A stretch of 64,000 nt of DNA, from contig NC_071115.1 in assembly GCF_024256425.1 (NCBI RefSeq), forward strand, positions 12,526,746 to 12,590,745, given 5' to 3'. Below, one piece after another: positions 16,786 to 61,700 of the stretch. A program made the translations under genes and the position numbers. How positions within the stretch are numbered: the first letter of the stretch is position 1; each line of letters begins with the position of its first letter. The notes below the pieces were generated by a model. It saw only the letters and a list, made by a program, of their open reading frames with translations, ran no database searches and had not been told where the DNA came from. This DNA is from Clarias gariepinus (lineage: Eukaryota).

Positions 16786-17114
16786 GATGTGGTTATTAAT
16801 AAAGAATAATAAGAAAATGATAGAACGATTGCATAGAAGATGCTTTAAGTTAAAAGACTGAGAAACACTATATTTAGAGGAAAAAACATGAAACAGGTTC
16901 GGAATTGAACCATATGCCTTTTTAAAATAATAATTAAAAAAAACAACAATAACAACAAGCATATCATTGGTATTAACTCCTGTATACCAATTATAGGCTC
17001 GTTTTTTTTCCTTTTATCTTATAAATAAAATGATCATTTCACAATTTTCCAATGCATTCCACAGGCTTTTATTTTAAACATTCAGATTTTAATTAGAAGA
17101 CAAGTGAAACTCAC

Positions 17115-17247
17115 GTCCCCAGTTGATGACAATGGTAGCAGCAATGATGAGAACTCCTCCCACAAGAGAGACAATCGAGAGGACCTTTGCGTTGCGTCCA
17201 AGACGCCGCGCTCCATCAACATTATCTTGTTGCAGACTGTACCGAGA
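17115..17247 (-). CDS. prrt2: PRRT2-like coding exon 3 (TM2); may extend unspliced to stop TAA at 17091-17089
   Basis: Reads [44 protein letters not shown]. Matches PRRT2 [44 protein letters not shown]. Acceptor ctttctctcag|TCT. The 3' end is ambiguous: a consensus donor C|GTGAGT lies at 17114-17113. Alternatively read-through gives REFHLSSN* followed by AATAAA (plus tttatt 17068-17073). Confidence 0.7.
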
Positions 17248-17494
17248 CTGAGAGAAAGAAACACAAGAGAAAAGAAACTAAGAAAGATAAAAAGATGACA
17301 GAAAAGCACACAGAAAGTCATTTTGAGTAGATTAAATGAAATCTGATATAAGACTGATTCCAAATAAAACTAATTGTATCGTATTGTAAAAAATAATAAA
17401 AAATGATGCATCAACATACAACCCACTACACACGCAACTGTTTTAACACATTTTTAATCAGGAAAGTTAATCCTAAGCTTCTAAACAACTGTAC

Positions 17495-17802
17495 CATAAC
17501 AGAGAACGTCAAGCCGACGATGTTGATGGGCCAAAGTGGGCAGAAGCAGGCAAGTATGGCCAGGAAAAGGTAATCGTTAGGCTTGGTGTCATCTCCTGCA
17601 TTCTCGGTGAGAGCGCTGGGCTGGCGGCTGAGCGAGGGCCGAGGCGACCCAGCATGGCTCAGTGAACCTGAGCGGCTGCCGATGCGGGCATGGCCATGAG
17701 CATGCACATGGCCAGCCTTGGTATGATGATGATGACGAGGGGGAGAAGAACGGGAAGAGGTTGAAGGAGAAGCATCCACAGCATTGGGACAAACTCCATT
17801 AC
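17495..17802 (-). CDS. prrt2: PRRT2-like coding exon 2 (His-rich region and TM1)
   Basis: Reads (S)NGVCPNAVDASPSTSSRSSPPRHHHHTKAGHVHAHGHARIGSRSGSLSHAGSPRPSLSRQPSALTENAGDDTKPNDYLFLAILACFCPLWPINIVGLTFSVM. Acceptor ctcaccag|GT, donor GTTATG|GTACAG. The C-terminal part matches PRRT2 [27 protein letters not shown]. Confidence 0.75.
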
Positions 17803-17959
17803 CTGGTGAGGATAAAGAAATGACAAGAAGAGGAATTGTTGAGAAAAAAGGAATTGGTTGGGTGGTGACAAATAGTCAGGATGTGAGAGAATTGTGTTTG
17901 GTAGATGGTCAGGTTGCATGCCACAAATGACACAAAAAAGCACATGCTAAGAACTTTAC

Positions 17960-18224
17960 TTGTTTCCATCTTTTCATCAATGACCGACAGGTTGTCTTTG
18001 GCCACGCCGTTCATATGGACTGAGCTTTCCAGAGCAGGAGTCTCCGTGTCTGTGGGTGGATCTTCATGCTCCGTCTTCACTGGCTGTGAGGTTATGGGAG
18101 CCTGGCCAGACACGTCATCTGGTTGTTGATTGGTCATTTGCTCAGTTTGTTGCTGCTCTTCTTCCTGCCCCTGCCCTGCACTTAGGGCAGTAGTTGGTGC
18201 GTCGCTGTCGGTGTTCAGAGCCAT
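17960..18224 (-). CDS. prrt2: PRRT2-like (dispanin family) coding exon 1; exon spans 17960-18310 with an 86-nt 5'UTR part
   Basis: ATG at 18224-18222 (atcaagATGG). Reads MALNTDSDAPTTALSAGQGQEEEQQQTEQMTNQQPDDVSGQAPITSQPVKTEHEDPPTDTETPALESSVHMNGVAKDNLSVIDEKMET(S). Upstream acceptor ctctttcccacag| at 18311-18312; donor ACAA|GTAAAG. Low-complexity acidic/proline-rich N-terminus as in PRRT2. Confidence 0.7.
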
Positions 18225-22760: not shown

Positions 22761-23536
22761 GACACATGTTTGATCCACTTATTTCAAACATCATAATAAA
22801 ACTGGTCCTGGACCAGTAAACAATTCATAAAGTGATTGTACAAATAAAAATTGTGGTTGTGCATTTTAAAGTACGTTGAAAAAAAAAACAGTGCACACTG
22901 AAAAAAGAACAGCATTGTCAAAGTCAAACGAAGTTAAAACAAGATTGTCAAAGTGTAATACATTATTAATGATTCAGGATCATCTGTGAAATGGCTTTGC
23001 ATTACATATCAACACTGGTTGTTTCTGCAACATCGTCAGCATTGCTTCATTGTTAACTTTGGCACAAAAATGAACATGCTTTTTTTGACTAACGTTGACT
23101 TTTTCCAGAGCATGGTCGTGAATCACAGTATAGTCACTCTGTCACCCAAAACAGCTGACCATCACAAACTGTAAACAAGCCCGGTTACCAAGTATGTAAC
23201 AGTTAAAGTCATGGGCAGGAGAAAATGTATCATACATTTCAAAGTTTATTTGATACTTATAAATGCACATGTAGTAGACAAAGATACATTCTTTTAGTTC
23301 ACTGCATGTTTCATAAGGCTTTGGTGGGTATGCTAAGAAAATTATTCCTTAAATGTTTAGTCAGGCACCTTGTTAAAGCAAATATATTTGCATAGAATAC
23401 ACTGCAATGTACTATTGCAAAGCATTTCTCTTACTACACCGTTTTCTCTGATAGTAGTAACGTTTTAGGAACTCAAACAACATAAAAGATGTCTGATAAA
23501 ACAAACAAACAAAAATTGCATTATAAGTGGGACGTA

Positions 23537-23542
23537 TTTATT
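23537..23542 (-). terminator. mvp: mvp polyadenylation signal AATAAA (minus strand), about 25 nt after the stop
   Basis: The plus strand reads tttatt at 23537-23542. A second candidate lies at 23246-23251 (plus tttatt) for a longer 3'UTR. Confidence 0.45.
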
Positions 23543-23565
23543 GTCTTGTCAGTTTCCCGGTTCTT

Positions 23566-23688
23566 CTACTTTTCCTCAGGGGTCTTCATCGCCCCCAGCA
23601 GGCCATTAGCAGTAGTGAACAGATTGATAGGAGAGGAGCCATCTGTTATCAGAGTGGATTTAAGACCCAGAGCTTGTAGAAGTTTAAC
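23566..23688 (-). CDS. mvp: mvp terminal coding exon (includes stop TAG at 23568-23566)
   Basis: Reads [40 protein letters not shown]. Acceptor tccatccag|GTT. Matches human [32 protein letters not shown]. Total CDS is 2619 nt, 872 aa. Confidence 0.9.
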
Positions 23689-24136
23689 CTGGATGGAGAG
23701 GGAAAAAAACAGCAGCAATGAGTGAATAAACAGCACTAATAATCAGAAATATAATAAAACACGTTAGAAGTTTAGAAGAAGAAAACGACTGGATACATGG
23801 TGAGCGAATCTCGAAATTTTTTATACCTCCTTGTGTATTACATCATATTAAATTATTAAAATTATTGAATTAATTACTTTATCATGTGGTGGTACAGTAG
23901 AAAAAAATTTAATCAAACACCACAATAACCATGAGATGGTTAAACACTTATCCATGATTTTTTTCTTTAAAGATATGATCATATTCCTTCCCGCAGTCAA
24001 GCCTTTTTACCTACAGTATACTCACTATTTCAGCCAGATCTACAAAGTCAATCCACACGACCTGAGTGCCTGGTGCAATAAAGCTCATTTAACCTAGAAG
24101 AAATACAGGAGGTCTGGGTCTGTGAGTGCCGCGTAC

Positions 24137-24325
24137 CTGTAGCTCTGGTCCAGCTCTGGCCATCTCCGTCAAAGTGCCACTGCCAATAGCTTCTACCAGC
24201 TGCTTGAAACGTTGGCTTTCGATCTCAGACAGTTTCTGCTGCTTCTCCACTTCCTGGCGATCCAGTTCCTTTTTATAATTGAGCTCCTGCTCACGTGCTT
24301 TTGCCAGACGCACCAGTTCAGCTTC
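24137..24325 (-). CDS. mvp: mvp exon 16
   Basis: 63 codons: EAELVRLAKAREQELNYKKELDRQEVEKQQKLSEIESQRFKQLVEAIGSGTLTEMARAGPELQ. Acceptor tatcttag|GAA, donor CTACAG|GTACGC. Matches human [64 protein letters not shown]. Confidence 0.85.
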
Positions 24326-24734
24326 CTAAGATAGAATTAGTGTAGGAAACCATGAGTGTAATACATTATTTCAAAATTAAAATGGCCATACACAGATGAG
24401 ATCATACTTTCAGAAATGTGCAACTACTGCCTTTAAATTTAAATGCAAATCTTGGTGGAGAGAGGCTCAAACACTGGGAGCAATTAATTAATCATCTTGA
24501 TACCCTATTAAAATGAGAGAATGGAAGTACAAAGAAGAGAGAAACAAAGACCGAGAGAGAGACAGCGAGAGATTGTCAAAGATATTAATTACCTAAGAAG
24601 AAATACTGCCAGCTCTGCATACTGTATTCTACTGGGATTATGAAATGCTAATGTACGCGTGCCCACACAAGTGCCTGTGTGTGAGACATGCTGATGAACT
24701 GCACATACGTGACGCTAAGAAAAGAAAGACGTAC

Positions 24735-24861
24735 CGCTTCTATTCTCTGGGCTTCAACTTTGAGTTTGGCCTCTTCAACAGCAGCCTCACCCTGGATACG
24801 TGCTGCCTCTGCCCTGGACTGAGCTTCTGCCTTTGCTGCTCCTGTACTCTCCACTGCAGCA
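24735..24861 (-). CDS. mvp: mvp exon 15
   Basis: Reads (S)[42 protein letters not shown]. Acceptor (GT)14-ttgtag|T, donor GAAGCG|GTACGT. Matches human [41 protein letters not shown]. Confidence 0.85.
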
Positions 24862-24865
24862 CTAC

Positions 24866-24893
24866 AAACACACACACACACACACACACACAC
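24866..24893. repeat. (CA)14 microsatellite on plus, (GT)14 on the mvp strand, abutting the exon 15 acceptor
   Basis: acacacacacacacacacacacacacac lies directly 3' (plus) of the acceptor at 24862-24863. Confidence 0.95.
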
Positions 24894-25468
24894 ATTAATA
24901 CTAAGGAATACACAGTTTGCTGTTTTGTGCTATTGTAGCTGTAATATATAGGCTATAAAAGTAATAATACTTAAGAATAATGCATTAACACAAATCAGCC
25001 ATGACTAACACCATCGCCTGGTGAAATGAACAACACTGATTATCAATTATATACCAGGAAAAAAAAAAAATCAATGCTGGCTGTGATAGAAAGGCACCAC
25101 AACACCCAGTGAATCACAGCCTGCCATGTTCTGGGCCCAATAGGCAAACCGTTGAAGATTGTTGACCTGGCCTACAAATTCCAAAAAGGCCGATCCAAAG
25201 GGGCCCAAACCCAAAGAACTCATGGGTTTGCATCTTTTATCCTGGCGTCAGACATGACAGTACACCCCCATACTGGCCAGAGCTGCCAGAAAGGGGAACC
25301 AAAAAAGCTGGGTGGTTTTAAAAATATAAGTGATTGGTGTATATGGCCAACCAAGTTGAAAACACATTATTGTGACAAACTTCTAACCATACTTTGTCCA
25401 AAGACCCACTTGCATTCTAGTCTCCATTTCTTCAGCCTTGCTGGGAGCGAGAAGCAGCAAGATCTTAC

Positions 25469-25585
25469 CTGAGAGCTTCCAGCTCTAGCAGCTCCTTCCT
25501 GGCCCTCTCAGCATCCGCCTGGTCTGTGATCTTCTGCCTCTCCAGTTTGCCCCGTGCCTCCTGCTCCAGACGCTCCGCCTCATGC
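25469..25585 (-). CDS. mvp: mvp exon 14
   Basis: Reads (R)[38 protein letters not shown](S). Acceptor cactctcag|G, donor CTCAG|GTAAGA. Matches human [40 protein letters not shown]. Confidence 0.85.
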
Positions 25586-26108
25586 CTGAGAGTGTAATAC
25601 AGAGAGAAAGAGTGATTATTCATTATTCACCAAAAACAAATATGAACAAATTAATTCTAAGGGCAGATGCCCAGTGTAATGCATGGGTGAGGTGTTGTGC
25701 TTCCTGTCAACGTTAACATCAACAAAAATAGCCTGAGTCAGGTCAGAACTCGACATTAGCTCAGCAAAATAGCTGATTTTCCAATTGATTTCCTTTGAGA
25801 ATTTGGTATAATGCATTATTGTACCTTAACAATTCTCTTTGGATGCCCATCCCAACATTATCAAGCATGTGACCTATTTATTTATGTCAGTTAAAAAAAG
25901 CTGAAAAAAGGCATGCATGCCAGAACAGCACAGACTGCCAAGGTAGCATATTAATTTAGTTAAAAAATATTGGCAGGAGAACAGAACACCTGTGCAATGA
26001 CTGAAGTTTTCCATCAGCTGAATAACACAAAATCTGATCAGAACCTGAAGGACAACAGGGGATATCATAATGTCGTTCAGCAGTGAGAGGTGAGAGGTGT
26101 ATACTGAC

Positions 26109-26320
26109 CTAGCTGTGGCCTCCTGGGAGTTGGTGGTGATTTCAATGGCAAGCTGGACGCTTTTCTGCAGGGCGTCACGCGTGCGCTGGTCCACCGGCTC
26201 TACTGACTGAATGTCCACACTGCTGATCACCAACCCGTTCTGACTGAAGCGCAGATTCTGTCTTACTGCCAGCTTCTCGTCAAAGCCAAACACGGCTGAG
26301 CAGATAATCCGGTTCGAGTT
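26109..26320 (-). CDS. mvp: mvp exon 13
   Basis: Reads [70 protein letters not shown](R). Acceptor T22-cacgcctag|AAC, donor GCTAG|GTCAGT. Matches human NSARIIRTAVFGFE...[39 protein letters not shown]. Confidence 0.9.
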
Positions 26321-26514
26321 CTAGGCGTGCAAAAAAAAAAAAAAAAAAAAAGGCAAGAGAAGAAGTGAGTGTGTACCATGCATACTGTAGAACCTTTATG
26401 CATGCATGCTATGTTGATTGAAGGGACAGATGGAAAGAACACATGCTAGAATATCAATGGTGGCATTACGAAAGATTTCTATGTATATAATAAACGGAGC
26501 AGCTTTTAATTCAC

Positions 26515-26659
26515 CTTGTGGAAGTCATCAAACTGCACTGAAGCCACAGCTCCTCTGATCCTAGAGGCAATAGCTTTGCAGGCATCACCCACGAAGTCAG
26601 GCACTGAGAAGAGAGCTGCAGCTTGTGCAGGGTCTGACTGGTTCTTAATCTCGAAATGC
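26515..26659 (-). CDS. mvp: mvp exon 12
   Basis: Reads (W)[48 protein letters not shown]. Acceptor cttgttcag|G, donor CACAAG|GTGAAT. Matches human [48 protein letters not shown]. Confidence 0.9.
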
Positions 26660-27482
26660 CTGAACAAGTGCAGAGAAAATGAACAGTAATTCAAAAACAA
26701 TATTTTAGACAATACGTGCAGTTTTATAAATCCATCACTGTCATGACAATATAGAGACAAAATCAATTTGGCAAGCGTGATGGTTTTGAAAACAGTTTAG
26801 TTTTACAAAATTATTTTCTACATTCGAGAACAATACTGGACTTTTTCGATACTATAAAATAACACAAGGCATTAGGGAATTAATTAACAACAACAAGAGT
26901 AAGTTGTTATTTAAAAGGCAGAAAAGTCAGCTATTCTGGAACGGTTCTTGCAAGATGATGAAACTGGCTCTCATGAACCCCGTCCCAGGAAGACCAGACC
27001 AAAACTTACTTCTGCTGCACAGAAAAAGTTCATCGAGTGTTTCCTGCATCACAAGTCACCAATTAACAAACAACACCTCAGATTAGAACCGTTATCAATG
27101 CTTTACAGAGCTTACAGTAGGTAGAGAACACATCTCAATATCAGCTGTTTAAAAGAGATTATTGCATATTGTAAATGCCTTCAGTATTCTTTTATAGGAA
27201 TTAGAAGGTTTGACTGGTAGTGTTAGTTACAGTAATTATTACTGCAGGACAAGTGATGACTGTATAATGAGGACTCGCAGAGCTTCTTGGCAACACATTC
27301 ATTTTTGACTCCCTATAGGGCTTGTACTTGTTATTCTGGCTGTAATCTGTCTGCACGTCCTCTTATTAGACTCTTAGGACCCAAGAGTCCTGCTGTCATG
27401 CATTGCTTTTTACCCCACACTTGGATAAGTAGCATATTTTGTAATGCGTGATATTTTTTATACACAGATACATCCCGGGAAC

Positions 27483-27483
<1 letters not shown>

Positions 27484-27520
<37 letters not shown>
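27484..27520. repeat. Compound (GA)n(GACA)7 microsatellite 11 nt inside the mvp intron after the exon 11 donor
   Basis: gagagagagagagagacagacagacagacagacagacagaca. Confidence 0.95.
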
Positions 27521-27532
27521 TGCGCGCTTTAC

Positions 27533-27730
27533 CAGTTGTAGGCGAGCTGGAGCTGCAGACGGGCATGATCAGCGGTTTCTATGGTGATGATGTCAGTGCA
27601 GAAATCAGGGCCGAGGAGCAGGCAGATGGCTTTAATGACGTTGGCTCGCTTGGGTTTCTCTCCAGATAGAGAGAGTACTGTGAACTGCTCATCAGGGCCT
27701 AGCATCACCATATCAGGTCCAAACACCACC
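27533..27730 (-). CDS. mvp: mvp exon 11
   Basis: Reads (R)[65 protein letters not shown](W). Acceptor ctctcag|G, donor AACTG|GTAAAG. Matches human [66 protein letters not shown]. Confidence 0.9.
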
Positions 27731-28562
27731 CTGAGAGAGAAGGCACAAGATTCTTAAAAACAGCTTTAATGCAAATATTGCCATCGAAGAGAGGAAAAGG
27801 TAGTGGTTGAAATTTAGTTCAAAAATAATTTGAATATTTAGTGACCAAGTGGATTAATAAATTTATTGATCTTGAGTAGGTGCTTTATCTATCCTGGGAA
27901 CACTGGGTGCAAGGTGGGAATGAGATGCTGTGGCAGTTCAATACAGCAGACCATGCACACACTACGCATGTCATAGAATAATGGATACATAACATTTTTA
28001 ATAATGTGTTCTTCTTAAACATTAGATAAGCAAACATTAATAAAAAAAAACCTTCCTGAATAACAGGCAAGTACAGATTCCAAAATGTCCTGTTAGTTTT
28101 TTTTTCTTGTTTATAGCGCCACACAGTCACCATTCACTTTATTAGAAACACCTGTACACATGCACATTCATGCAGTTATCTAATGAGCAAATCATATATA
28201 ATTATATAAAGCAAATTATGTGGCAGAAGAGCAACACAAACCATCATGCATATACAGTAAACATGCAAGTGCTTGTGTGATCTCTGTGATCTTGACATAG
28301 AATGGTCAAATGGGGTAAAAAAGCCGTGTTGATGAGAGAGGGGAAGTCTGTAGAAATTCACAAGCATGCTGAGCGGTAATGCGTCTCAGAACACACAACA
28401 AAGCCAACCTTGAGGTGGATGGGCTACAACAGAAGGTCACATTCAACAACGCATTTCCGTCCACAGAGCTGTTGCTCGCTCAAAGTTTGGTGCAACTTGA
28501 GATTGGCGAGGAGTTTTAGAAATACCTTAACCTGATATTCTTATACAATTACCCATACCATA

Positions 28563-29282
28563 ATAAAATTCACAGAGCCCACACTAAAGCCCAATCCCAA
28601 ATCTACCCCTTACCCCTACCCCTCTGTTTGACGCGTTAACGTGAAGGGGTAGGGGTGTCTCATTTCTCTTTTGGTTGGAGGGGTAGGGGTAAGGGGAAGG
28701 GCCTGATAGCCCTCCAAACGAAGATTTTTCGGGACCTCACTTCAAACGAAGGGCTAACGAAATTTTCAAGATGGCCGCTCACTCGAGCTAGCAGACCCAT
28801 AAATTTAACGAATTTTTGCCATTAATAAGGATTTTTATGACAAGTTTTTATTATATGTATATTAATTTTAGTCTTGTGTTTATGGTGATGTTTTGTAAAA
28901 AAACGTTTGCAAAAAAAACGCTAAAGTTTGCTAGCGGATAGCGCCGATTGCGCAATATTACAAAAATATATTTTTATGTCATATACACTTTACTGCATGC
29001 TACAAACAAATATAAAAGTTCAGTAGCACGGCAGTTTGCCGAGCTTTTGATAACGCATTGTTTGTTTTGCTTACGGCCATACTGTATGTGTACATGTAAA
29101 TGAACGGATACGTATGATGACGTATAACAGTGTTGTAGTGGTGTCCCATTTCTTAGGGGAAATATTTTAACCCTTCCCCTTTCCACTTCGTTTCAAGGGA
29201 CAAGGGGAAGGGGCGAGGGGTAGGGGAAGGGGTAGAAAATAGAATTGGGATTGGGCTTTAGTGTTCATTCTGAATTTTATGC
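28563..29282. mobile_element. MITE-like element with long (about 100-190 bp) G-tract-rich terminal inverted repeats, in mvp intron 10
   Basis: Left end ataaaattcacagagcccacactaaagcccaatcccaaatctaccccttacccctacccc... Right end ...ggggtaggggaaggggtagaaaatagaattgggattgggctttagtgttcattctgaattttat. The ends are reverse complements. Subterminal ccaaacgaag / cttcgtttcaagg are also inverted. Confidence 0.6.
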
Positions 29283-29407
29283 GGATATTAAGTGTGGGAA
29301 TTCTTTTGCATGTGATTAACTGCAATGAGCAGAAGCACAGGTGTTCCTAATGAAGTGGACGGTGACGATACATGTTGCTCTTACTGTGGAAACACATCTT
29401 TTGTTAC

Positions 29408-29643
29408 CTGGCTTTCTTCTCTCTGTAGTCATACACCTGCACTGCAGCATTATGGGGCACACGGTAGGACACCACCCTGGTTTTGTCCCTGTCTTCAGCA
29501 GCGGCCTGTTGGCTACGGTCAGAGCGGCCGGCTAGAGGGTCACGCATACTGCTCAGCAGCTTCTCCACATTAGCAGGGAGTTCCTTTTCCCACAACTCCT
29601 CGTCGTGCGTCAGCATGTATGTGCGGCCAATCACAGCGCGTAC
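29408..29643 (-). CDS. mvp: mvp exon 10
   Basis: Reads [78 protein letters not shown](R). Acceptor ctgggcag|GTA, donor GCCAG|GTAACA. Matches human [23 protein letters not shown]...[25 protein letters not shown]. Confidence 0.9.
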
Positions 29644-30201
29644 CTGCCCAGAGCAACGAGGAGTACAAGAGACAAATATTTACATAAAGCTTTACATAGC
29701 TTCAGGTCTGTTTGCATGTTTTTCTAGCAGAACTCAGCGTGGCGGAGGGTGCAGTCACTTGCTAGTGCAATACTATAGGCAAGCTGATCAAGTAACACCT
29801 GTTATTATGCAGGCTTCCACTGCATTAAGAATTTACAGCTGGAGGTCCACCTGCTTTGTTACTTAATATACAGTAACTCCTTATTGAAGACTCAGCCTTT
29901 TGGGACATTAAATATGAGTTACGATTGTTTAAAGCTTGCTGTTGCTTCATTTATTCATGAGAGACTATAGACACGATCGTGACCTTCCATCCTCTGTAGA
30001 ATGGGATTATATGTTTTAGAAATGCAGGGTGGATCTGACTTTTCTCTGGACATTTCACAAGCCAGATTTCATAAGCCGTCTGTGGGTGTGGACTCGTGAT
30101 CCTACAACAGAAGCATTTCAAGGTCTAAGACTCCTACGCACATTCTCTCCTCCTTGTATGAATTGTGTTTATGAAGAGTATTAAACAAAAAAACTATTGA
30201 C

Positions 30202-30402
30202 CTTGCCAGTCTTGATGTCGCGCACATATATTCCTTCATTCTCATCCAGCGGAATAGCCTGGCGTCGCAGCATGACCTCTACAGTGGCAGGCGGCACGTA
30301 CTCGATTGGCCCACGCAGCATCCAGCGGTCTCCCGGGCGTCTCGGTACACCCTTCTTTTTGGATTTTCCAGCTAGCTCCTCTTCCTCGCCTTCTTCCTCT
30401 TG
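30202..30402 (-). CDS. mvp: mvp exon 9 (acidic linker plus repeat)
   Basis: 67 codons: [67 protein letters not shown]. Acceptor ctgcatcag|CAA. The donor AAG|GTCAAT is weak, but the next exon starts with the expected V. Matches human EEGEDEEK...[43 protein letters not shown]. Confidence 0.8.
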
Positions 30403-31075
30403 CTGATGCAGAGACAGGGGGAGAGAGGGGGTAAGACAGAGAGAAGGAAAGAAAAGGGGGCAAATGCAACGGCTGGAGATGGGAGGAGATATACATGGCT
30501 GCGTGTGAACCAAGCACCGAGTGTGTGTGTAGGGCTGTATGTGCATGGTAATGTGTACGTTTGTGTAAAAAAGCAATGTGAGAGACAAATAATTATAATA
30601 ATAATAATAATAATTAAACGTAAAGCAAATTTTATAAGAATTGAAAAGTAAAATCATTGGGAAAGAGGATTTGATATTTAATCAAAAAAAGGGGAAGAAA
30701 GACAAAGATGATGGTTAATTAATGAATCCCCTGATCACCAAACTATTTCTTTATTCTTAATCAGCATCCAATATTTTATATACATACACAATAGTTTATG
30801 CATGTACACACACATATATACACACACACACACACACTGTGTATATATATATTTTAAAAAATTCACAACGCTCCCTTCTTATACGCTGCATATTTTAAAG
30901 GGCGTGTAGTGTGCATATGAGGTGTTGGCTAATCTGACAGTTTAAACACACCAGCAGGATTCTGGCTAAACGAGTAGTGCGTGCATTTAAGCACGAAAAG
31001 AATTTAATGGTCTATTTATCTTCATGCCAACTTTTCCTCTCTTTACTTTTCAATGCTCATACTGCTCTGTCTCAC

Positions 31076-31201
31076 CGCCTCTGTATCATTGAAGGCCTCC
31101 ACTGCACGCAGCACCAGTCCCTCCTCCTCAGACAGCACATAGACATCCTGGATACCGTTCTCCAGGCGCTCTCCGGGCTGCAGGAAGAATGAGCGCTCGC
31201 C
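31076..31201 (-). CDS. mvp: mvp exon 8
   Basis: 42 codons: [42 protein letters not shown]. Acceptor tctcttag|GGC, donor GAGGCG|GTGAGA. Matches human [34 protein letters not shown]. Confidence 0.85.
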
Positions 31202-31486
31202 CTAAGAGACAGAGAGGGATATACATATTTTATATCACTGGCATACAGTATTTTCAACTTTTCAGTGCTTAGCAAGAGCAACGAGTGTGGCTTGTGGACG
31301 AAACACAAGAGGAAGAACCAGGTTTAACCAAGTTGAATATCTGTGTGAAAATTGCATTTCTAATCTTGACAAATTGGCAATATTTTATTCTATTCTAAAA
31401 TTAAACTTGACCCATGTAGCTCATAATATTGCAGTTTTGTGTTCCTAATTCGGCCAGTTAAGAGGTCTGCGTATAAGAAAAACTAC

Positions 31487-31723
31487 CTTCACCACTCTCT
31501 TCTGTCCAAGCTGGGGCTTTCCATCAGGCCCGACTGGGTCCAAGATCACACAGTACTCCCTGCTGCTCAGCGTGGTCACATCCACAACCCCGACAACTTC
31601 CTCAGCCACAGAGGGGATGTGCGCTTCTCTGTCCGCCACCGTCACCAGCCACTCCTCTCCTGTCCTTCTGTCTCGCCCTCCTGCATCCCGGAATGGACGC
31701 AGAGCACGAACGTGCAGTGCACG
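31487..31723 (-). CDS. mvp: mvp exon 7
   Basis: 79 codons: [79 protein letters not shown]. Acceptor ttttatcccgtcag|CGT, donor GTGAAG|GTAGTT. Close match to human MVP. Confidence 0.9.
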
Positions 31724-31889
31724 CTGACGGGATAAAAGCATTAATGGATTCAAACTTAACGCAATAACAAAAGATCCTCTGAGTAAGCCCTTTTTTTTGG
31801 GAGGGGGAGATATTTTCATAAACGTCATGCATCTGCTCTATGCTACAGTATGCACATTTACAAAATTGGTTATGAAGAAAAGCTGTTAC

Positions 31890-31984
31890 CTTATCAGTGA
31901 GGATGAATGCATTCACAATATCGATGACCTCCTCATGCGCTCCAGGAAGGTATGCTCCAACCTTACTGACCTGCCACTCCTCAC
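31890..31984 (-). CDS. mvp: mvp exon 6
   Basis: Reads (G)[31 protein letters not shown]. Acceptor gcgtcag|GT, donor GATAAG|GTAACA. Matches human [32 protein letters not shown]. Confidence 0.9.
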
Positions 31985-32340
31985 CTGACGCACACAAACA
32001 CATCCACAATCACATGCTAATGTAATCAGCTTGCCAATTATCTTTGCATTATTTAAGCACAATAGGTTCACATTAATAGTGTGTAGAAAATGTGATTCTC
32101 AGGTATTTGTTGAAAAGCCTTGTACCAGCAAAGTATCCAAGTGTCTGCTGTGAACTTTGCTATTTTGCATAACTATTTTGCATGTTATGAGGGGCGTTCA
32201 AGTCAAACTGGGACTACTGTGAATGAAGGAGTAGAACCAATTCTTAGACTTTGCTTTGCCGTAGTAAACATTCAAATGGTGCTCTGGGATAAGTGCATTA
32301 TTTAACATTTTTTTTTTAGAAAAAAAAAAAAAAAAAAAAA

Positions 32341-32785
32341 CGGTTTTCTCCGAGTGGTGCAGTGGTAAAGTGCTCGCCCTATCATCTGGCAATCGCTGGT
32401 TCGATTTCCAGATGATGCTGTAACCTCTCGCAGCCGGAGGTCTAGAGAGAGCTGATTGGCTGAGCTCTCTCAGAGGGGAGGGATGAGAGGTACTTTGTGC
32501 TCCCACATTAATCACAGCTGTACAGCCAATCACGGGCGTCTGTGAGCTCACACAAGCAGAAGGAGTGGATAGTGCTGTCCTTGTAGTGTGTTACGCCGCT
32601 CCTAACGGTGAGTGAGCAAGCAGTTCGAAAAGATGTGACGTCATGTGGTTCGGAGGAAACATGTGATAGTCTTCGGCCCTCCCGACTGAGTGGTACTAGT
32701 AGCCTTAATATGGGAGTCCCCTCGTGATGGGGAGGAATTGAACACAACCAAACCAGGGAGAAAAATAAAAAATAAAAATAAAACA
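32341..32785 (+). mobile_element. Different tRNA-derived SINE with A-rich tail, in mvp intron 5
   Basis: Head gagtggtgcagtggtaaagtgctcgccct..ggttcgatttcc. Tail aaaaataaaaaataaaaataaaa. Preceded by T9/A22 homopolymers. Confidence 0.55.
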
Positions 32786-32947
32786 GTTTTCTAGCATCTT
32801 TTGCACGAAAATGGACTATCCCGGTTTGATTTGAACGCCAGTCATGTATTCCTGGGACAACAATGTAATGGTATTGATTGATAACTTAGGTGTTTGAGGA
32901 AAAACTGTTTTTTACATGTGTGTGACACGTGTCGTGTATATGCTAAC

Positions 32948-33079
32948 CGGTCACTCTTCGAACTCCGCTGCGATCAACGCCCTCTTTACGAGCACGAAGG
33001 CGAATGGCCTGGTTTTCCCGAATCACTGTGGCTTTGATGGTCTCCAGGACAGCCACCTCCTTCTTGGGGATGTATGTTC
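32948..33079 (-). CDS. mvp: mvp exon 5
   Basis: Reads (G)[43 protein letters not shown](G). Acceptor ccttcag|GA, donor ACCG|GTTAGC. Matches human [33 protein letters not shown]...RVTG. Confidence 0.9.
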
Positions 33080-33299
33080 CTGAAGGAGGTCAGAGACTAT
33101 GGGTTAGCCAGGCGTAGGTGATGCGGTGGAAATATATAAAAATATACAAGATTTAGATAAATAATCCACGAACAATATCAGCACAGAATCTAGCTTTGCT
33201 AGTTAACATCATAATACAGTCATATATTTAAAAGTGAATTGTTAAAATATGGAGAATGCTGGTTTTAGTTTGAGGAGGAGTAAAAGAAAGTTAAGCTAC

Positions 33300-33423
33300 C
33301 TGGCCCCTCAAACAGCCACTCATCTCCAGCCACTCTCTTCTCTCCATTATCCTCTTCGAAGTCAAGAAGAGCCTGCAGCCTGAGTGCCGTGTCAGGATAC
33401 ACGATCTGCAGTGGGGTCACTTC
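33300..33423 (-). CDS. mvp: mvp exon 4
   Basis: Reads [41 protein letters not shown](G). Acceptor tattag|GAAGTG, donor CCAG|GTAGC. Matches human [42 protein letters not shown]. Confidence 0.9.
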
Positions 33424-33578
33424 CTAATACGCAGAAAAGGTTATAGGTTAGTAAATATATATTTATGAAGTCCTTTAGGAAAAGCAGTTAGAGGTCACCT
33501 GATTAAAAGACGCTTCTTGTATAAACTCTATAATATAATACAAAATTGAAAGGGATGAAGTGAGATCAAACAGCCCAC

Positions 33579-33774
33579 CTTCTGGATCTCTTCTCCAGGG
33601 TAGAGAGGAAAAGGATCTTGGGTCAGACGGATCTCCAGGTCTGCATGGCGGAGCTTAGCCTGGCCTGAGGTGTCAAACTGGACCTCTCCCTCATCATCAC
33701 GAGCCACCGGGTTCAAAATCACACAGTAATGGCGAGGGGGCACCATGAGCATACGAGTCGGGGAGAAGAGAACC
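33579..33774 (-). CDS. mvp: mvp exon 3
   Basis: Reads (R)[65 protein letters not shown]. Acceptor ttctcag|G, donor CAGAAG|GTGGGC; the phase fits exon 2. Matches MVP repeat 1-2. Confidence 0.9.
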
Positions 33775-34509
33775 CTGAGAAAAGGTGCAAGATGTAGAAG
33801 AGTAAATGAAATACAAGTGCAGATATCATGGCACACTTCAAGATGGGCACAATCCATCCATCTAGGAACCTCTATAATAAAACTGGGGACTGTGGAGGCC
33901 AATAGTGATTACCGTGTGTATACTGTGTGTGTATACAAGTCAATGATTAAGTCAATTAACCTGTCCAACAGGTCTTCGGACTAAAGAAAGAAAATACAAC
34001 TGTAAGGTTTCTGATGTTGTGCAAGCTTTCCCATGTCTCCATGTCCATGAAACATCCTCCTTCACTTCCTCATTTTATATATGGCAATACCTACTATAGC
34101 CTGTGTCTGGATGAACTCATGCAAAGTGCTCGCTGGAACCCTTTTGTTTAACCGAAATAGGCAAATGTGCATCCCATAGTCGGTCTGTCTCTCGGTCTCT
34201 ATATGACCTGCATGTTAATGCAGCAAAAAACAAACAAAACAGGATGTATGTGACAGAGGGCACATGGTCATGCATGTGTCCCTCTCTTCTCGATCAGGGT
34301 CTAGGAATAGTTGAAACAAGGCAGAATTCATACTGAATGGGCTGCGATCAAAAGACATCTTGATTAGAGGACACCAATCACACACTCATTCACGCCTTAG
34401 AGGCAACTGAGTGTAGGCAAATTCACCTACCTGCTGGGTTACCTTTTTTTCCTGGAATAATTGATATAAATAAAAAGACGATGCACACTGGCTTCATGTT
34501 GCCCTACAT

Positions 34510-34750
34510 GTCTAGGGTTATGGGTTTGATTAATTTCTCAGGTCGGTGTGCATGGAGTTGGTCTGTTCCCCTCTGGCTTGGTGGGTTTCCTCTGGGTACT
34601 CTTGTTTCTTTCAGTCCAAATATGTACTGTATAAGCTGACCGGTGTTTCCAAATTGCACAAGTGGGTATGCTTGCACTTTGCGATGAGTTAGTACCACAT
34701 CCAGAGTGTACCCTACCATGTGCACCAAGTTCCCTGGGACAAATTCTACG
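34510..34750 (+). mobile_element. SINE copy (5' truncated)
   Basis: ggttatgggtttgat..gtgcatggagttggtctgttcccctctggcttggtgggtttcctctgggtac...cagagtgtaccctaccatgtgc. Confidence 0.6.
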
Positions 34751-36740
34751 CACACATGTACTTACACAGGATAAGCAGTATAGACAATATATGGATAGGA
34801 TACAAAAGAGAGCAACCCAACCTCCTTGGAGCATGAAACAATAGGCCCACAGTTATACCCACTCTGCCACCACGCCACCCCTGGAAACCTTCTGTTTGTT
34901 GGAAATCTGACCCCAGCCAACAAGCCTACACATGTTATTCCAAACAATGGTTTTGGCCTGGCTTAGAAAGATCAAATTTAGAAAAGGAGAATATTTTTCA
35001 AGCAGTAAGATCACCTCCTCTTAACAGAAACATTAAAGTATCCTTTACACAAAAAGGATTATTATTTTATTCTTATTATTGTCCACAATTTTCATTTTCC
35101 TCATCAGTTCCTAATTTTGGTCATACTGCTTAACAAAATCCTCAGATTTCCACCCATGGAGAAGAGATCACAGATGCCCATGAGAAGCTATGGTCACTGA
35201 CTGGGTAAAGAGAGTATGCTAAGCATCTCTACAGATAACATGATCACCTTTGCTCCGTAAACCTTTGGTGCATGTTAAAAATTCACAACTGAGATCTCTC
35301 AATGATAAAGCGGACACTTTCCTGTACGGCTGTACAAACTCCTCTTTAAGAGAACATCAACAGGTGTTCTTACAGGTGCAGCATTGAATGTTTGTTAATA
35401 GACAAGTATTAATCACAGAATACAAGACACTATGATTTTATTATGCACATATCTGATTTGTTTCTTTAGTTTAGGCCTCAATTTTAGATTTTTCTGACAT
35501 GTGGTTTAGCTTTGTCCTTGGCTCAAACTCCTAAAGAAAAGAGGCTCAGCTTTGTCGATTTTCCTTAAAAAGCAGATCTAGTTTAAAAAAAGGTTTGGGG
35601 CTTTTGGAGAGAAGAGAATGGATCTTTTAATTGCAGTGTAATTGACCTTGCCAGCAGTAAAGGACTTTAAAAATGATCAACAGCTTCTTTAATAGCGATA
35701 TTTAAATCATTGTATGACCTCAATGAATAGATTGTGACTATGTACCTTGTATGATCATAACAGATCATGTTTCTCTCTTTTTAGTGAAGATATAGCTGAG
35801 AGATATCAGTAAATCCTAACAACTATTTTCTTAAAAAACTGCACAAATCAGTGTCTAAAACTCCTGATTTTAAGCATGAGTTTTATTACTCTTTATAGAA
35901 GTTTCTTTTATGCAGAAATGTTTTTAAAAGCATCTTTTGCTTATGCCATATTTTTATATGTGCCCAAGACTTTTCCACAGTACTATAAGTAAAATAGTTG
36001 TTAGGTTTTACTGAGCATGCTGGAGAATATGAGTTCTTCTGGTAACCTTGTCACACTCGCTTCTTTCTATTTTTATGCAAATCCCAGGAGCGTGCATTAG
36101 GTTTTTTGTTTTCTGAAAACTGGTCTGTCTTGTACCATATTTTTTTTCTTTACCACCATACATATGTTCTCCTGTAATGGCAATGTGTATAACAAAATTA
36201 GTATTGGCGACCGCACGAAACCGTGTAGGTGTGATAGGGGTATTAAAAATTGAGGGGATTGCTTTGTTAAGTTGCACAGCATCCTGTGTGGTAAGCAGAT
36301 TGTGCTTAGGTACTTTTCATGCATCTTTACTTGAATGATTTCTATATTTATTACTTTTACTCACTGTATTTATGCTGAAAAACTTCATACATGAAGTAAA
36401 TATACAATCTGCACTGTTTTTCTAACCTAACCGTAATCATTTACGTTATCAACTTACACCATATCAAAACAGACAATTCCACAAGTCCAAGTGGTCCAAG
36501 TTTACAGGAATTTATGTTATGAGGTTATGAAGGCGCAGCTTGATTACTTAAGCAGTGGGTCGCACCCACTTGGTCTGCGGATTCTCCTGACTTTCTGACT
36601 TAATCCTGTCAGAGTATGATTAGAAGTGATCTAATCGTACTAATCTACTCATACTTAAGAACTAAAAGAAAGTCTGCAGATGGTATGATTAGATTAGTAC
36701 AATTAGATCACATCTTGACACTCATTTCATATTTTCATAT

Positions 36741-37261
36741 TCAGTGTTGGGGACCATTACTTTTTAAAGTAACTAATTACATTACAAAATACTATCTTTA
36801 AAAAGTAGTCAGTTACATTACAGCATTACTTTCTGATAAAAGTAACTAGTTAGGAGTACTTTTTCATTGCAGAAAACCAAAACTCCTTTGTGGTTCCTCA
36901 TGCATGTTGTTTTAGTCAAGCCCTTTATAATTATACTAATAACTACTAATACCCCTATCCCCAGTTTCGCGCGGTGGCCGTAAGTACGGTCCATCATGAT
37001 TTACTGCGGGATAGGGGTACAATAGCAGGAATAACGGGCGGGTTATTGGGGGCAAAACTTGTAGAACGACTTTCACAAACACACACAATAACGGATTGGA
37101 AATGACTGCTGTCTGGCTCATGGACTGCATAAATTGTCGGAATAACGGATTACATTTTTAAAAAAAGTAACTAAATACTTAAATGGTGGACATAATGCAT
37201 TAGATTACCCGTTACCTCAAAAAAGTAATCCAAGTACTCTAATGCGTTACACCCAACACTG
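36741..37261. mobile_element. Non-autonomous hAT-like DNA transposon in mvp intron 2
   Basis: Terminal inverted repeats CAGTGTTGGGGACCATTACTT... and ...GCGTTACACCCAACACTG. Internal subterminal repeats gtaactaa/gtaatcc. Flanks ttcatatt / tccatata resemble a decayed 8-bp TSD. Confidence 0.55.
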
Positions 37262-37381
37262 TCCATATACTGCTTTTAATTCCATGATTGATAAATATGC
37301 TTTTTTTTTTGGCTGTACTTAGGTAGCAGCATGATATTGTATTGGGTTGTCCCTGGTAATTCACATCCCTAGAGTGGTTAC

Positions 37382-37542
37382 CTCTCATTATCCTGGCGGA
37401 TGTAGGTGAGGGGTCCAACCTCAACCCGAGCAATGTTGGTGTTCTGATCCAACACATGGATGTAGTGGTGTGGAGGAATCCTGATGATTGAAGCGTCAGT
37501 AAGATCGCTGTGCTCCAGGTGACCTGCAGGTCTCTTCGACAT
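37382..37542 (-). CDS. mvp: mvp coding exon 1 (exon 2 37382-37545; ATG at 37542-37540)
   Basis: Translates [54 protein letters not shown], matching the MVP N-terminus ([16 protein letters not shown]...YIRQDNERV). Acceptor cag|ATCATG, Kozak A at -3; donor GAGAG|GTAACC; ends in phase 2. Confidence 0.9.
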
Positions 37543-40461
37543 GATCTGAGTGGGACAGAGGGGAGCGTTTATTGATTGTGAAGTCAATTATGTGTCAGCA
37601 ATCAATCAGTGATAAAACACTCAACCAAAATCTAACAGCATCCAGGGAGTAAAGTGCTGACTCTGATAAAGCATGTATCAACTTTTTAGCTATAATAAAA
37701 TACACAATTATTCAGCTAAAAGTAAAACAAAATAACATGCTACGTTATTGTAAATATACAGTATGCGGGATAATTATGTTAGCTAAAACTCCTGTAAATA
37801 CAAAAAGGTTGACTTGACCGTCAAATGACAGTAATTATACAGACAAGTGTACAAATAGAGATTTGAAAAACAGCAAAAAAAAAATTATTAATATTTTAAT
37901 TCTGATTTCTCTTACATAACAAGGTTTTAAAAAATGCTTTTAATCATGAAAACCATCTTGCTACATAATAAAAAAATTCTTTGTAATAGGCCATGTAATA
38001 TCTTTATTACCAGACACACCACAATTCTTATCTCTTTATAGCCACAGCAATATGATAAGGTTACTATGGAGGTGAACGTTGTAAGATAGGAAGACTGTGA
38101 ATGAGTGGGTCTCACTAGGGTTCACGGCGAACTTTGACTGTCAAACCTGATCACTGAACCACATAGCGAATTACATACATAAGCGTCTGTACAAAAAACA
38201 TGCACACACCCACACCTGCCTTTCGCAAGCCTAAGAACAAAGAAGATTGCATTTTGTTCCCAGCCCTAACTATACTTACTCAAATGGCCCAGTGCAAATA
38301 AAGGTAGCTAAATGACAAGGTAGTGTTTATTTGACCACCTGACATGTATAAATCATAAAAAGAAAAGAAATAGAGCAAAAGGGCTGGGCCAAGCATGACA
38401 TCGAGATCAAGAATTGCAGATAGACAGGTATGAATTATCAGTTTGTTTTATCATAACTCACCCATAAAACACATTGTCACTTAGTCAGTATGGACAACCA
38501 AATTTTGCTAGGGTTCAAACTGAATTTTCAAAATGACTAGCAAACTGTATTTTTGAAAATTTTGTGAAGTCAATTATTAAAAAAAAATTTTCTGAATGTG
38601 TAAAAGAAGGAGAATCCATCATGTGATTCTTAACGTTGCTGATTACATAATTATTAGTGAGCCTGCTAAGGATTTCTGCCTGCTACTTCTTTTTAAACAT
38701 AAGAGCCAGAAGCAATAGTATTCCATGTCTATGTTCATGACATTTAAGGAAACTTACATAGTTCACTTCTCATACGGCTTTTGTTGTTACTTTATTCTTG
38801 AAATCTGATTTGAAATATGTACCATGCTGATCAGGATTTAGTTCCAAGAAAAGAAAAAAACAACATATATAGATTATACTATTCAAAGTAATGTAAAAGC
38901 AAGACTCGTATGTCTAGATTTAACATTCTATGTAATGCATTAAAACAAGCATTTTAAAAAAGTTTTTAAATTTTTTTAATTTATGATTAAGCACGCATTT
39001 ATACATGTATAAAATACATGCACTTTCCTGTACATCAACTTGAATAAAAGAAATACTTTAACCACTTCCAGCACTTGGGTCATTCTACAGAAAAGGTGGA
39101 ATTTGGGTAATAAAAATCTCCTGAAATGCATTTCTTCTTTCACACCCAGAACTTTTTTTTCATAGCAATAACTTTCTTTTTAACTTCCACTTGAATCCAT
39201 AAAAAATAGAGCTTAATGCCTTTTTTTTAAACATACATTTAATGCTCGCTTTCTAGTAAAACCAATGGCAATTTCTGACAGTTATAATTATAAAAAGAGT
39301 AACACCAATGATGGACTTAAAAGCTTCGCATAGAATTGCGAAATAAATTATGACATTTTTAAATAAATTAAGACAGACATCAGACATACATTTCGCATTC
39401 GTCCAGTTCTCTCTATCTAGTGACCTCTGATGTAGCAACAATTTTAAATTGTCGGAAGTCTTTCAAAATAAAACGCCTGATGTCCAACAGTAACATCAAT
39501 TACATAGTTTGGGGTGACATATCTATTTCATATTATAAATTCCTCAGTTATTGTTTTACAATTTTGGTGTTTCACATATTTTTTAAGACATCAATGTTAT
39601 TGTGAAACAGATATATTTGATAAAAAAAAGCCTTTAGGTGAACAAGTACATAGTACCACTTTGATGTATAATCAAAGTGACAAAGCATTTCTTTGAACTT
39701 GGTCTCGCTTCAATTAAATACTGAACATTGAAAAGAGAGAGAATGTATTTCATGATTGTAAGTACATACTATATTTTCATATACATAGACAAGTAATGTG
39801 TCTGTTATGTTATATATGCCATTTAAATGATTTTGTCATCAGCAAACCTAAATCACAGGACTTTCCACCATCTTTGTGGAATGATTCAAACTCACGTGAT
39901 TTGTTTGTTTGTTTGTCTGTATTTTTTCCCTGTTACAAAATAAAACAAACACGGAAATACTAACCATGTATTAGAATAAACAAAGGCTGTAATTTATTTG
40001 GGGGTAACACAAGTCAAAGCGGTAATTAAAGAAAAACAAACGAAAGAAAGACGCTTCCGCATGGAGGACGGAGGTGTGGCACAGAGTAATGCAGCACAAC
40101 GTTTGCGCTTTATTAACTGATATAAACGGTACAGCCTATAGAATCCTTACAAAACAGGAGCTTTCATGTAGTTTTTTTAAAACAAACATCGAGTTATTAC
40201 AAGCTGTCTAGGTGACGTCGCTCATTTCACTTCCGTATTGCTAGCCTGCTCCGAGGCTGAGGCTAAATCTCCCGACTTTAATTCCTTTCATATTAACTGT
40301 GTATTAAATAAACAACCACATTACATAACTCTTAACCCTAACCGAAACGCGCACTTTTTCCAAATTACTGAGAGTTACGATGTCAACGCAGTTCAATTTG
40401 CTGTCAAAACATAACGCATAATGAAAATATTATAACAAATAAAATTAAAACCAGTACTTAC

Positions 40462-49224: not shown

Positions 49225-50345
49225 ATTAACAAGCTAGGCTACATTCATATGTAAAGGCTATCTAAACACACATAATGTACATCTTATCGAATCACAAAAA
49301 AACTAAACCCAATCAAATCACACATAATATATACCTAATCTAATCACACCTAATCTAATAACAAATAAACTAATCACACATAATATATACTTAATCTAAT
49401 CACACATAATGTACACCTAATCTAACCACACATAATCTACACCCAATCTAATCACACCTAATCTAATAACATATAATCTACACATAATCTAATCACACAT
49501 AATCTACACCTAATCTAATCACACCTAATCTAATCACCCATTATGTACACCTACTGTAATCTAATAACATATAATCTACACATAATCTAATCACACAATA
49601 TATACTTAATCTAACCACACATAATCTACACCTAATCTAATAACATATAATCTAATCACACATAATATATACTTAATCTAATCACACATAATCTACACCT
49701 AATCTAATCACACCTAATCTAATCACCCATTATGTACACCTACTGTAATCTAATAACATATAATCTACACATAATCTAATTACACAATATATACTTAATC
49801 TAACCACACATAATCTACACCTAATCTAATAACATATAATCTAATCACACATAATATATACTTAATCTAATCACACATAATCTACACCTAATCTAATCAC
49901 ACCTAATCTAATCACCCATTATGTACACCTACTGTAATCTAATAACATATAATCTACACATAATCTAATCACACAATATATACTTAATCTAACCACACAT
50001 AATCTACACCTAATCTAATAACATATAATCTAATCACACATAATATATACTTAATCTAATTACACATAATCTACACCTAATCTAATCACACCTAATCTAA
50101 TCACCCATTATGTACACATAATCTACACATAATCTAATCACACATAATATATACTTAATCTAATCACACATAATGTACACCTAATTTAACTACACATAAT
50201 CTACATCTAATCTAATTACACCTAATCTAAACCTTATCTAATCACACATAATTTACAAATAACCTCATCACACATAATATGCACATAATCTAGTCATACA
50301 TAATATAACAACAGATAATCTATACCTAATTTCATCACATATAAT
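49225..50345. repeat. Tandem satellite with 189-bp higher-order period built from about 12-bp subunits (cacataatctac / acctaatctaat)
   Basis: The marker cacccattatgtacac recurs at 49535, 49724, 49913 and 50102, exactly 189 bp apart. The flanks are degenerate copies of the same short motif. Confidence 0.85.
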
Positions 50346-61194: not shown

Positions 61195-61700
61195 ATGCAT
61201 TTTTATTTTTATACATTTAATAACTAGTGTTACTTCGCTTCCTGGTAACACCAATGACAGTAAAAACTGTCCTAAGATCACTAATGTCCTAAGTAACACC
61301 AATGATGGTAAAATAAATGATTTAATACCAATAATGATGACACCAGTGACAGAAACATTAATGACGGTAACACAAATGACAATTTAGAGAATTCATTTAC
61401 ACCTAGAAATTCATTAATAGAAATAGCTTACTCCTAAACTTTATAAATCAATAAACAGTGAAGATTAATGCATTTTAATTTTTAATACATGTCATAACTA
61501 GTGTTATTTCAGATCCAGGCAACACCAGTGACAGTAACACCAATGACATTAACATTAGTGACATAACACCAATAATAGTAAAATCAATGACAGTAACGTT
61601 AATGATGGTAACACCAGTAATGGTAACACCAATGATGGTAACAACGAGAACAGAAACAACAATGATGGTAACACCAATGACAATTTAGAGAAAAATCATA
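61195..61700. repeat. Duplicated block containing a 15-bp minisatellite (ggtaacaccaatgat)n
   Basis: Two blocks, each starting cattttat/aatttt..taactagtgtta and followed by tandem aacaccaatgacagt-like 15-mers: 61240-61390 and 61500-61690. Confidence 0.7.

Follow-up and report, generated by a model that had tools for sequence, protein, structure and literature searches.

The window, by which we mean the whole 64,000-nucleotide stretch of DNA analysed, carries the gene mvp on its minus strand. Coding blocks were located by tblastx against orthologous loci and all splice sites were then read. This gives 16 coding exons (37545..23488, c1-c16 in coding order) and an open reading frame of 872 residues, which aligns over its whole length with MVP residues 3-851 (E = 0). 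Among named matches the C-terminal 255 residues fit best to MVP of Tetraodon nigroviridis (87% identity; a turtle and a bat protein reach 75% and 66%), and the host gene can be assigned to a teleost. Two spliced products of relatives, P0025 from a transcript-like contig and the Tetraodon protein P0027, contain the exon that concerns us here, with the same junctions. Downstream of mvp, again on the minus strand, are the conserved exons of a CD225/PRRT2-like gene (about 17100-18200), syntenic with one of the orthologous loci, L006; the arrangement matches the PRRT2-MVP neighbourhood at human 16p11.2. At about 17640-17790 in L006 a long GT repeat, of more than 60 units judging by the tblastx signal, comes right after the PRRT2-like exon, and no such repeat is present at the corresponding place in the window. 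Two further tandem arrays lie elsewhere in the window, one complex and about 1 kb long (49260-50304; nested periods of 26, 67, 189 and 378, with a unit like ATCTAATCACACATAATCTACACCTA), the other a 160-nt array of 15/44-nt units (61521-61682).

Our interest is in the 14th coding exon and the intron in front of it (Table 1). In human and rat MVP the exon peptide finds its match at residues 715-754 (E = 3e-8), and the exon encodes MVP residues about 728-770. Both of its boundaries are validated by the MVP alignment, which runs unbroken across LEALS/AAVESTG and RIEA/EAEL (the slash marks the junction). An earlier note on this DNA had named the gene as mvp, had given the exon as 127 nt long and had stated that skipping it would shift the frame. 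The identification is secured by the alignments of the exon peptide and of the 872-residue coding sequence to MVP, and the length is as given (24861..24735). Omission of the exon in turn yields a frameshifted product of 770 residues; its stop codon falls in the following exon, some 54 nt short of the final junction. The label 'exon 15' is plausible for what is the 14th coding exon, since the ATG exon has an acceptor of its own and at least one non-coding exon must therefore lie upstream. Only one exon of the gene is richer in purines than this one (purine fraction 0.66, with 9.4 GAR motifs per 100 nt), although its composition may simply follow from the coding of a Glu/Ala/Lys-rich coiled coil. 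A CAG lies within it, 8 nt past the acceptor (TGCTGCAG then TGG; 24853-24861), and is a potential cryptic 3' splice site, use of which would shift the frame and let the exon start at 24853. The donor of intron 14 matches the consensus at 8/9 positions, the best in the gene. Other microsatellites are also seen at or near mvp splice sites: on the coding strand, a (T)21 run at 26331-26351 forms the pyrimidine tract for the exon starting at 26320, and (GTCT)9, which is (AGAC)9 on the plus strand, occupies 27484-27520, starting 12 nt into the intron past the donor 27533/27532.

Table 1. Positions in the window of the mvp exon studied, its acceptor and nearby elements.
Feature	Position	Strand	Remarks
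Upstream mvp exon, 13th coding	25469..25585	-	ends ...LLELEAL-S(AG/T)
Intron 14, 607 nt	24862..25468	-	donor CAG/gtaaga
A/C-rich stretch (…acagctacaatagcacaaaacagcaaac), lying 20-60 nt 5' of the repeat	24915..24952	-	preferred predicted partner of the GU tract when 1143 nt are folded, and only then; not robust
TTAAT, sole yUnAy between upstream AG and 3' splice site	24894..24898	-	putative branch point
(GT)13, (UG)13 in RNA	24868..24893	-	spans branch-point candidate to 3' splice site; pure AC x13 on the plus strand; TRF 24864-24894
TTGTAG, final 6 nt of the intron	24862..24867	-	acceptor AG at 24863-24862; junction backed by continuous MVP alignment
Target mvp exon, 127 nt, 14th coding ('exon 15')	24735..24861	-	donor GCG/gtacgt
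CACACACA, downstream intron	24676..24683	-	complementary to GU tract; predicted pairing in the 286-nt context only; not robust

On the coding strand the intron ends ...ccttagtattaat(gt)13ttgtag and the exon follows as TGCTGCAGTGGAGAG; in its shortest form the junction reads ...attaat(gt)13 ttgtag and then TGCTGCAG. The plus strand is accordingly a pure (AC)13 at 24868-24893 and the coding strand an uninterrupted (GT)13, read 24893..24868, while Tandem Repeats Finder (TRF) reports an imperfect AC/GT array of 15.5 copies at 24864-24894. The earlier note had described (GT)14 ending 5 nt before the AG. There are in fact 13 uninterrupted units, 14 being reached only if the GT within ttGTag is counted, and the pure run ends 4 nt short of the acceptor AG; the interval given for the feature, 24862-24893, is exactly (GT)13 plus TTGTAG. 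The main point of the note, that a GT repeat takes the position of the polypyrimidine tract and that no such tract is present, is borne out. Pyrimidines make up 0.55 of positions -23 to -4, and at this authentic 3' splice site the longest pyrimidine run is 3 nt, with GT-repeat hexamers falling inside the last 40 nt of the intron.

The same two measures, pyrimidine content at -23 to -4 and the length of the longest pyrimidine run over the final 40 nt, were taken for all 16 mvp acceptors. Clear tracts are seen at 14 of them, with contents of 0.65-0.90 and runs of 5-23 nt. Besides the target (24861), the acceptor of the fifth coding exon, c5 (31984), has a content of 0.50 and a longest run of 3 nt. 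This second acceptor without a pyrimidine tract is also GT-rich: the minus strand at 31985-32015 reads gtgattgtggatgtgtttgtgtgcgtcag, after which the exon begins with G (31984).

The AG nearest upstream of the target 3' splice site is 39 nt away from it. Within that interval the only plausible branch point would be A 24895 (uauuaAu), 33 nt from the end of the intron and directly 5' of the repeat. Because the sole yUnAy of the interval, TTAAT, immediately precedes the repeat, the repeat would fill the whole spacer between branch point and AG.

Runs of this kind are not rare in the region. The 64-kb window has 10 AC/GT runs that reach 8 units or more, with many more in the TRF output, so that the repeat has the look of a neutral microsatellite: a pure dinucleotide run of a type abundant elsewhere. 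Its position at the acceptor is unlikely to be due to chance. In the approximately 11.4 kb of mvp intron, which has 15 acceptors, two GT runs on the coding strand reach 8 units or more, and by our estimate, assuming uniform placement, one such run would end within 6 nt of an AG with a probability of about P = 0.02. Chance is in any case an unnecessary explanation, because the same acceptor is GT-rich in most orthologues.

These orthologues were found through a protein search with the exon peptide, which led to short open reading frames on fish genomic DNA in public assemblies; 22 loci were fetched. In all 22 the exon measures 127 nt and begins at one and the same codon position. At the orthologous acceptor, 9/11 other fish lineages have GTGTG within the final 32 nt. 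The GT runs there comprise 0-7 units, and the (GT)13 of the window is the longest run among the loci compared. Runs of seven units are found in L001, where the intron ends gc(gt)7tgcag, and in L003 and L005; L002 and L004 have (GT)6; and L016-L019 have gtgtgCgtgtgtgt, an interrupted run of seven. Shorter runs are seen in L009, with (GT)4, and in L020, L007 and L022, with (GT)3, while L006 has ggtgtgcgtgtttcccag at the orthologous acceptor. L010 and L011-L015 combine two GT units with U/C-rich sequence, and L021 has an ordinary pyrimidine tract and no GT run. Since nucleotide identity between the exon of the window and those of all the other loci is no more than 70-82%, the GT-rich acceptor is common to well-diverged lineages. 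The orthologous introns are of 82-158 nt (362 nt in L022) compared with 607 nt in the window. A transposon was considered as a candidate origin of this greater length; no second copy of the extra intron sequence (24862-25468) was found in the window or the fetched loci.

Variation is also visible at much closer range. The exons of L002-L005 and L016-L019 are 100% identical to one another, and these loci stand for three alleles, from a single species or from very close ones. As (GT)6, (GT)7 and gtgtgCgtgtgtgt thus accompany identical exons, repeat length is polymorphic in one relative at least. The length of the orthologous site therefore differs both between species and between alleles, the latter in a relative only, and such variation is typical behaviour for a microsatellite. 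Contigs of the window's own species, on which further alleles might be read, were sought by an exact look-up of open reading frames and two metagenome scans, which gave no hit, and the homology search had no match at 100%.

The neighbouring mvp acceptors provide a control. The final 32 nt at five acceptors in the same loci were scored for GTGTG or TGTGT, and the motif is present in 1/6 loci at c12, 3/11 at c13, 9/11 at c14 (the target), 7/9 at c15 and 0/9 at c16. L002, for example, has aa(tg)8cag at the c15 acceptor, one exon after the target, and in L001 the acceptor region of c13, one exon before it, is almost entirely GT-rich (gtacgtgtgcgtgtgtgtgtgcgtgtgcgcag). GT-rich or GT-repeat acceptors therefore recur in this part of fish mvp and shift from one intron to another; between lineages, the repeats seem to change places among the 3' splice sites of the gene. 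The exons behind these acceptors are all needed for the full-length protein, and their recurrence on such obligatory exons argues that GT-rich acceptors would generally be harmless.

A setting for these observations is provided by Lin et al. 2016 (Genome Res, PMC4691745), who found that GT repeats peak directly upstream of zebrafish 3' splice sites as a genome-wide teleost feature; their enrichment in fish introns had been found earlier by Yeo et al. 2004, as credited in PMC4691745. Where (AC)m and (GT)n co-occur in an intron, the two form a helix which bridges it and makes U2AF2 dispensable, and the pyrimidine tract is absent from 61% of such (AC)m-(GT)n introns as against 23% of all fish introns (PMC4691745). 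The mvp intron resembles the introns of that study in belonging to a fish gene, in having a long GT run that masks the pyrimidine tract before the AG and in preceding an exon required for the frame. It differs from the (AC)m-(GT)n introns in having neither the AC partner nor the bridge. ACACAC and CACACA are absent from the whole 607-nt intron, and hence from the neighbourhood of its 5' splice site, both within 40 nt and within the 200 nt used in the co-occurrence analysis. The minimum free energy (MFE) of the intron, -176.7 kcal/mol, is not distinguishable from that of shuffled sequences (z = -1.3, 20 shuffles), nor is there a significantly stable fold that pairs AC and GT tracts. Membership of the bridged class is thus ruled out: lacking both an AC repeat, whether near its 5' splice site or elsewhere, and any significant bridge, the intron is a GT-only case.

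It could still be supposed that structure assists recognition of the acceptor, with the GU tract pairing to an A/C-rich intronic partner in place of U2AF2 and a pyrimidine tract. We regard this as very doubtful. The AC-GT precedent, in which U2AF2 becomes dispensable, does speak for it, as does a context of 1143 nt in which the GU tract has a predicted paired probability of 0.67, mostly with the A/C-rich stretch at 24915-24952; the MFE folds of L001, L002 and L003 also each contain a small local hairpin between GAAACAC(AC) and the GU run. However, the predicted partner differs in every folding context. In the MFE fold of the intron alone, the tract pairs with scattered upstream segments, and the predicted centroid fold leaves it unpaired. 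When 286 nt are folded, it pairs across the exon with a segment of the downstream intron that includes CACACACA (z = -0.1), but this 'exon looping' is lost in the 1143-nt context, in favour of 24915-24952, and was discarded as a candidate. The last 120 nt of the intron with the start of the exon give z = +1.2. The short orthologous introns, at z = -0.8 to +1.2 and with nothing beyond the small local hairpins, likewise offer no bridging structure, and the lack of any AC hexamer in intron 14 counts further against this explanation.

What we consider probable is that the repeat is an ordinary intronic (GT)n microsatellite, a lineage-specific expansion to 13 units of a 3' splice site that was GT-rich ancestrally in teleost mvp, and that the exon behind it is most likely constitutive. 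According to this model, the GT-rich 3' splice-site region would have been present in the intron of the ancestral teleost gene and would have reached 13 units in the lineage of the window, the GT tract taking over from a conventional polypyrimidine tract across the interval from branch point to AG. A GT repeat contains no A and therefore cannot create a competing AG or branch point. Expansion would accordingly alter only the spacing, which at 33 nt is within the usual range, and lower the density of pyrimidines; U would be kept at every second position and the tract would still end UUUGUAG. Definition of the exon would probably be favoured by the strongest donor in the gene (8/9 consensus) and by the purine-rich, enhancer-like composition of the exon itself. 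Fish are, according to the literature, less dependent than mammals on U2AF2 and pyrimidine tracts; in this model their splicing machinery tolerates the expanded GT-rich 3' splice site. Constitutive inclusion is suggested both by conservation of the exon and by its necessity for the frame.

There is a partial parallel in man. The acceptor of human APOA2 intron 2 is (GT)16GGGCAG and its exon is normally included (Shelley & Baralle 1987; Mercado et al. 2005, as cited in PMC4691745 and PMC1524908). From what these sources relate, the two cases share a GT repeat in place of the pyrimidine tract at the acceptor of a normally included exon, along with an enhancer-rich exon context. They differ in gene and lineage and in the tail, GGGCAG in APOA2 and TTGTAG in mvp; in addition, TDP-43 binding and enhancer dependence have been demonstrated for APOA2, as those sources describe it, and would be conjectural for mvp.

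Other considerations count against constitutive inclusion. The only direct experiment on a GT-repeat 3' end of this sort is the CON-GT chimera, which joined a GT 3' half to a 5' half without AC; it was spliced inaccurately, with use of a cryptic 3' splice site (PMC4691745), and the mvp intron likewise lacks an AC partner. Furthermore, by analogy with the CFTR exon 9 system, (UG)13 with three U's would be strongly prone to skipping. In that system, as reviewed in PMC1524908, TDP-43 bound to the (UG)m of the (UG)m(U)n tract at the acceptor promotes skipping (Buratti et al. 2001). GU-rich RNA is bound by CELF1, MBNL1 and TARDBP, of which TARDBP promotes the skipping of CFTR exon 9 (PMC4691745). 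The earlier note had drawn the analogy with TDP-43 on (UG)n at 3' splice sites, and legitimately so, CFTR exon 9 being the standard example in the accounts consulted (PMC1524908, PMC4691745); it had gone on to suggest that repeat length might tune inclusion of the mvp exon. In those accounts CFTR intron 8, with its (TG)m(T)n, offers a UG repeat of similar length (11-13 units) beside a short U run before the acceptor, and length polymorphism, which for mvp is seen at the orthologous site in a relative. The cases part over the outcome, since skipping of CFTR exon 9 is described as in frame and has been observed directly, while skipping in mvp, like TDP-43 binding there, is hypothetical and would shift the frame.

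Extended to mvp, the analogy would have a single-stranded (UG)13 recruiting TDP-43 or CELF-type GU binders, with U2AF and U2 blocked; skipping would then depend on repeat length and yield an unproductive frameshifted mRNA, and the repeat would tune MVP output. This seems to us unlikely. A tract of at least about 6 UG units beside the 3' splice site would be needed for such a role; the 13 units here are enough, abut a weak UUUGUAG acceptor without a pyrimidine tract and, being long and unpaired in the predicted intron centroid, are probably accessible. Skipping would indeed produce a frameshift and a premature stop, the polymorphism in a relative would supply the variation in length, TDP-43 orthologues are present and important in zebrafish (PMC13343711), and besides the CFTR precedent there is the mis-splicing of the GT-only chimera (PMC4691745); the CAG within the mvp exon would be a candidate cryptic site. 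Against this, GT-rich acceptors persist at the target exon and at adjacent mvp exons in divergent fish with unchanged exon boundaries, and the spliced products of relatives include the exon. Repeat-bearing zebrafish introns turn up in roughly equal proportion among constitutive and alternative events (PMC4691745), rather than being enriched among the latter, and the (GT)16 acceptor of human APOA2 is, as cited there, normally used. The premature stop, moreover, is borderline for NMD at about 54 nt before the last junction. Taken together, the comparative evidence leans against length-tuned inclusion as a notable property of this acceptor.

A more elaborate proposal would see here a natural GT-only acceptor, without pyrimidine tract, AC partner or stable structure, on a frame-required exon and read by a GU-binding protein that replaces U2AF2. 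The tract would then act as a length-polymorphic rheostat through competition from TDP-43 or CELF proteins, the frameshifted product setting the dosage of vault protein between individuals. The identity of the protein that would read the tract is conjectural in any of these schemes, and we think this one decidedly unlikely. Least credible by far is that the feature is an artefact, with the true acceptor elsewhere or the repeat an assembly error. Microsatellite lengths are certainly error-prone in assemblies, and the CAG lying 8 nt downstream might be the real site. Yet only the AG at 24863-24862 keeps the frame, giving LEALS/AAVESTG as in human MVP, all 22 orthologous loci put the acceptor at the same codon position, and GT runs are there in independent assemblies of other fish.

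The acceptor therefore adds one more case to a pattern already described in teleosts (Lin et al. 2016, PMC4691745), of the GT-only variety and not of the AC-GT bridged class. Were repeat length to modulate inclusion of the exon, the repeat would be a heritable variant of MVP dosage, although none of our findings suggests this. Should the exon be constitutive, as we expect, it provides a further example of teleosts tolerating GT microsatellites in place of pyrimidine tracts. For annotation, the case is of value in that splice-site predictors trained on mammals would score an authentic acceptor poorly. It may also be useful as a test case: a GT-only 3' splice site occurs here naturally, before an exon critical for the frame, and the one published GT-only construct was mis-spliced. 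The case so bears on the question of whether fish can recognize a GU tract directly, without an RNA bridge.
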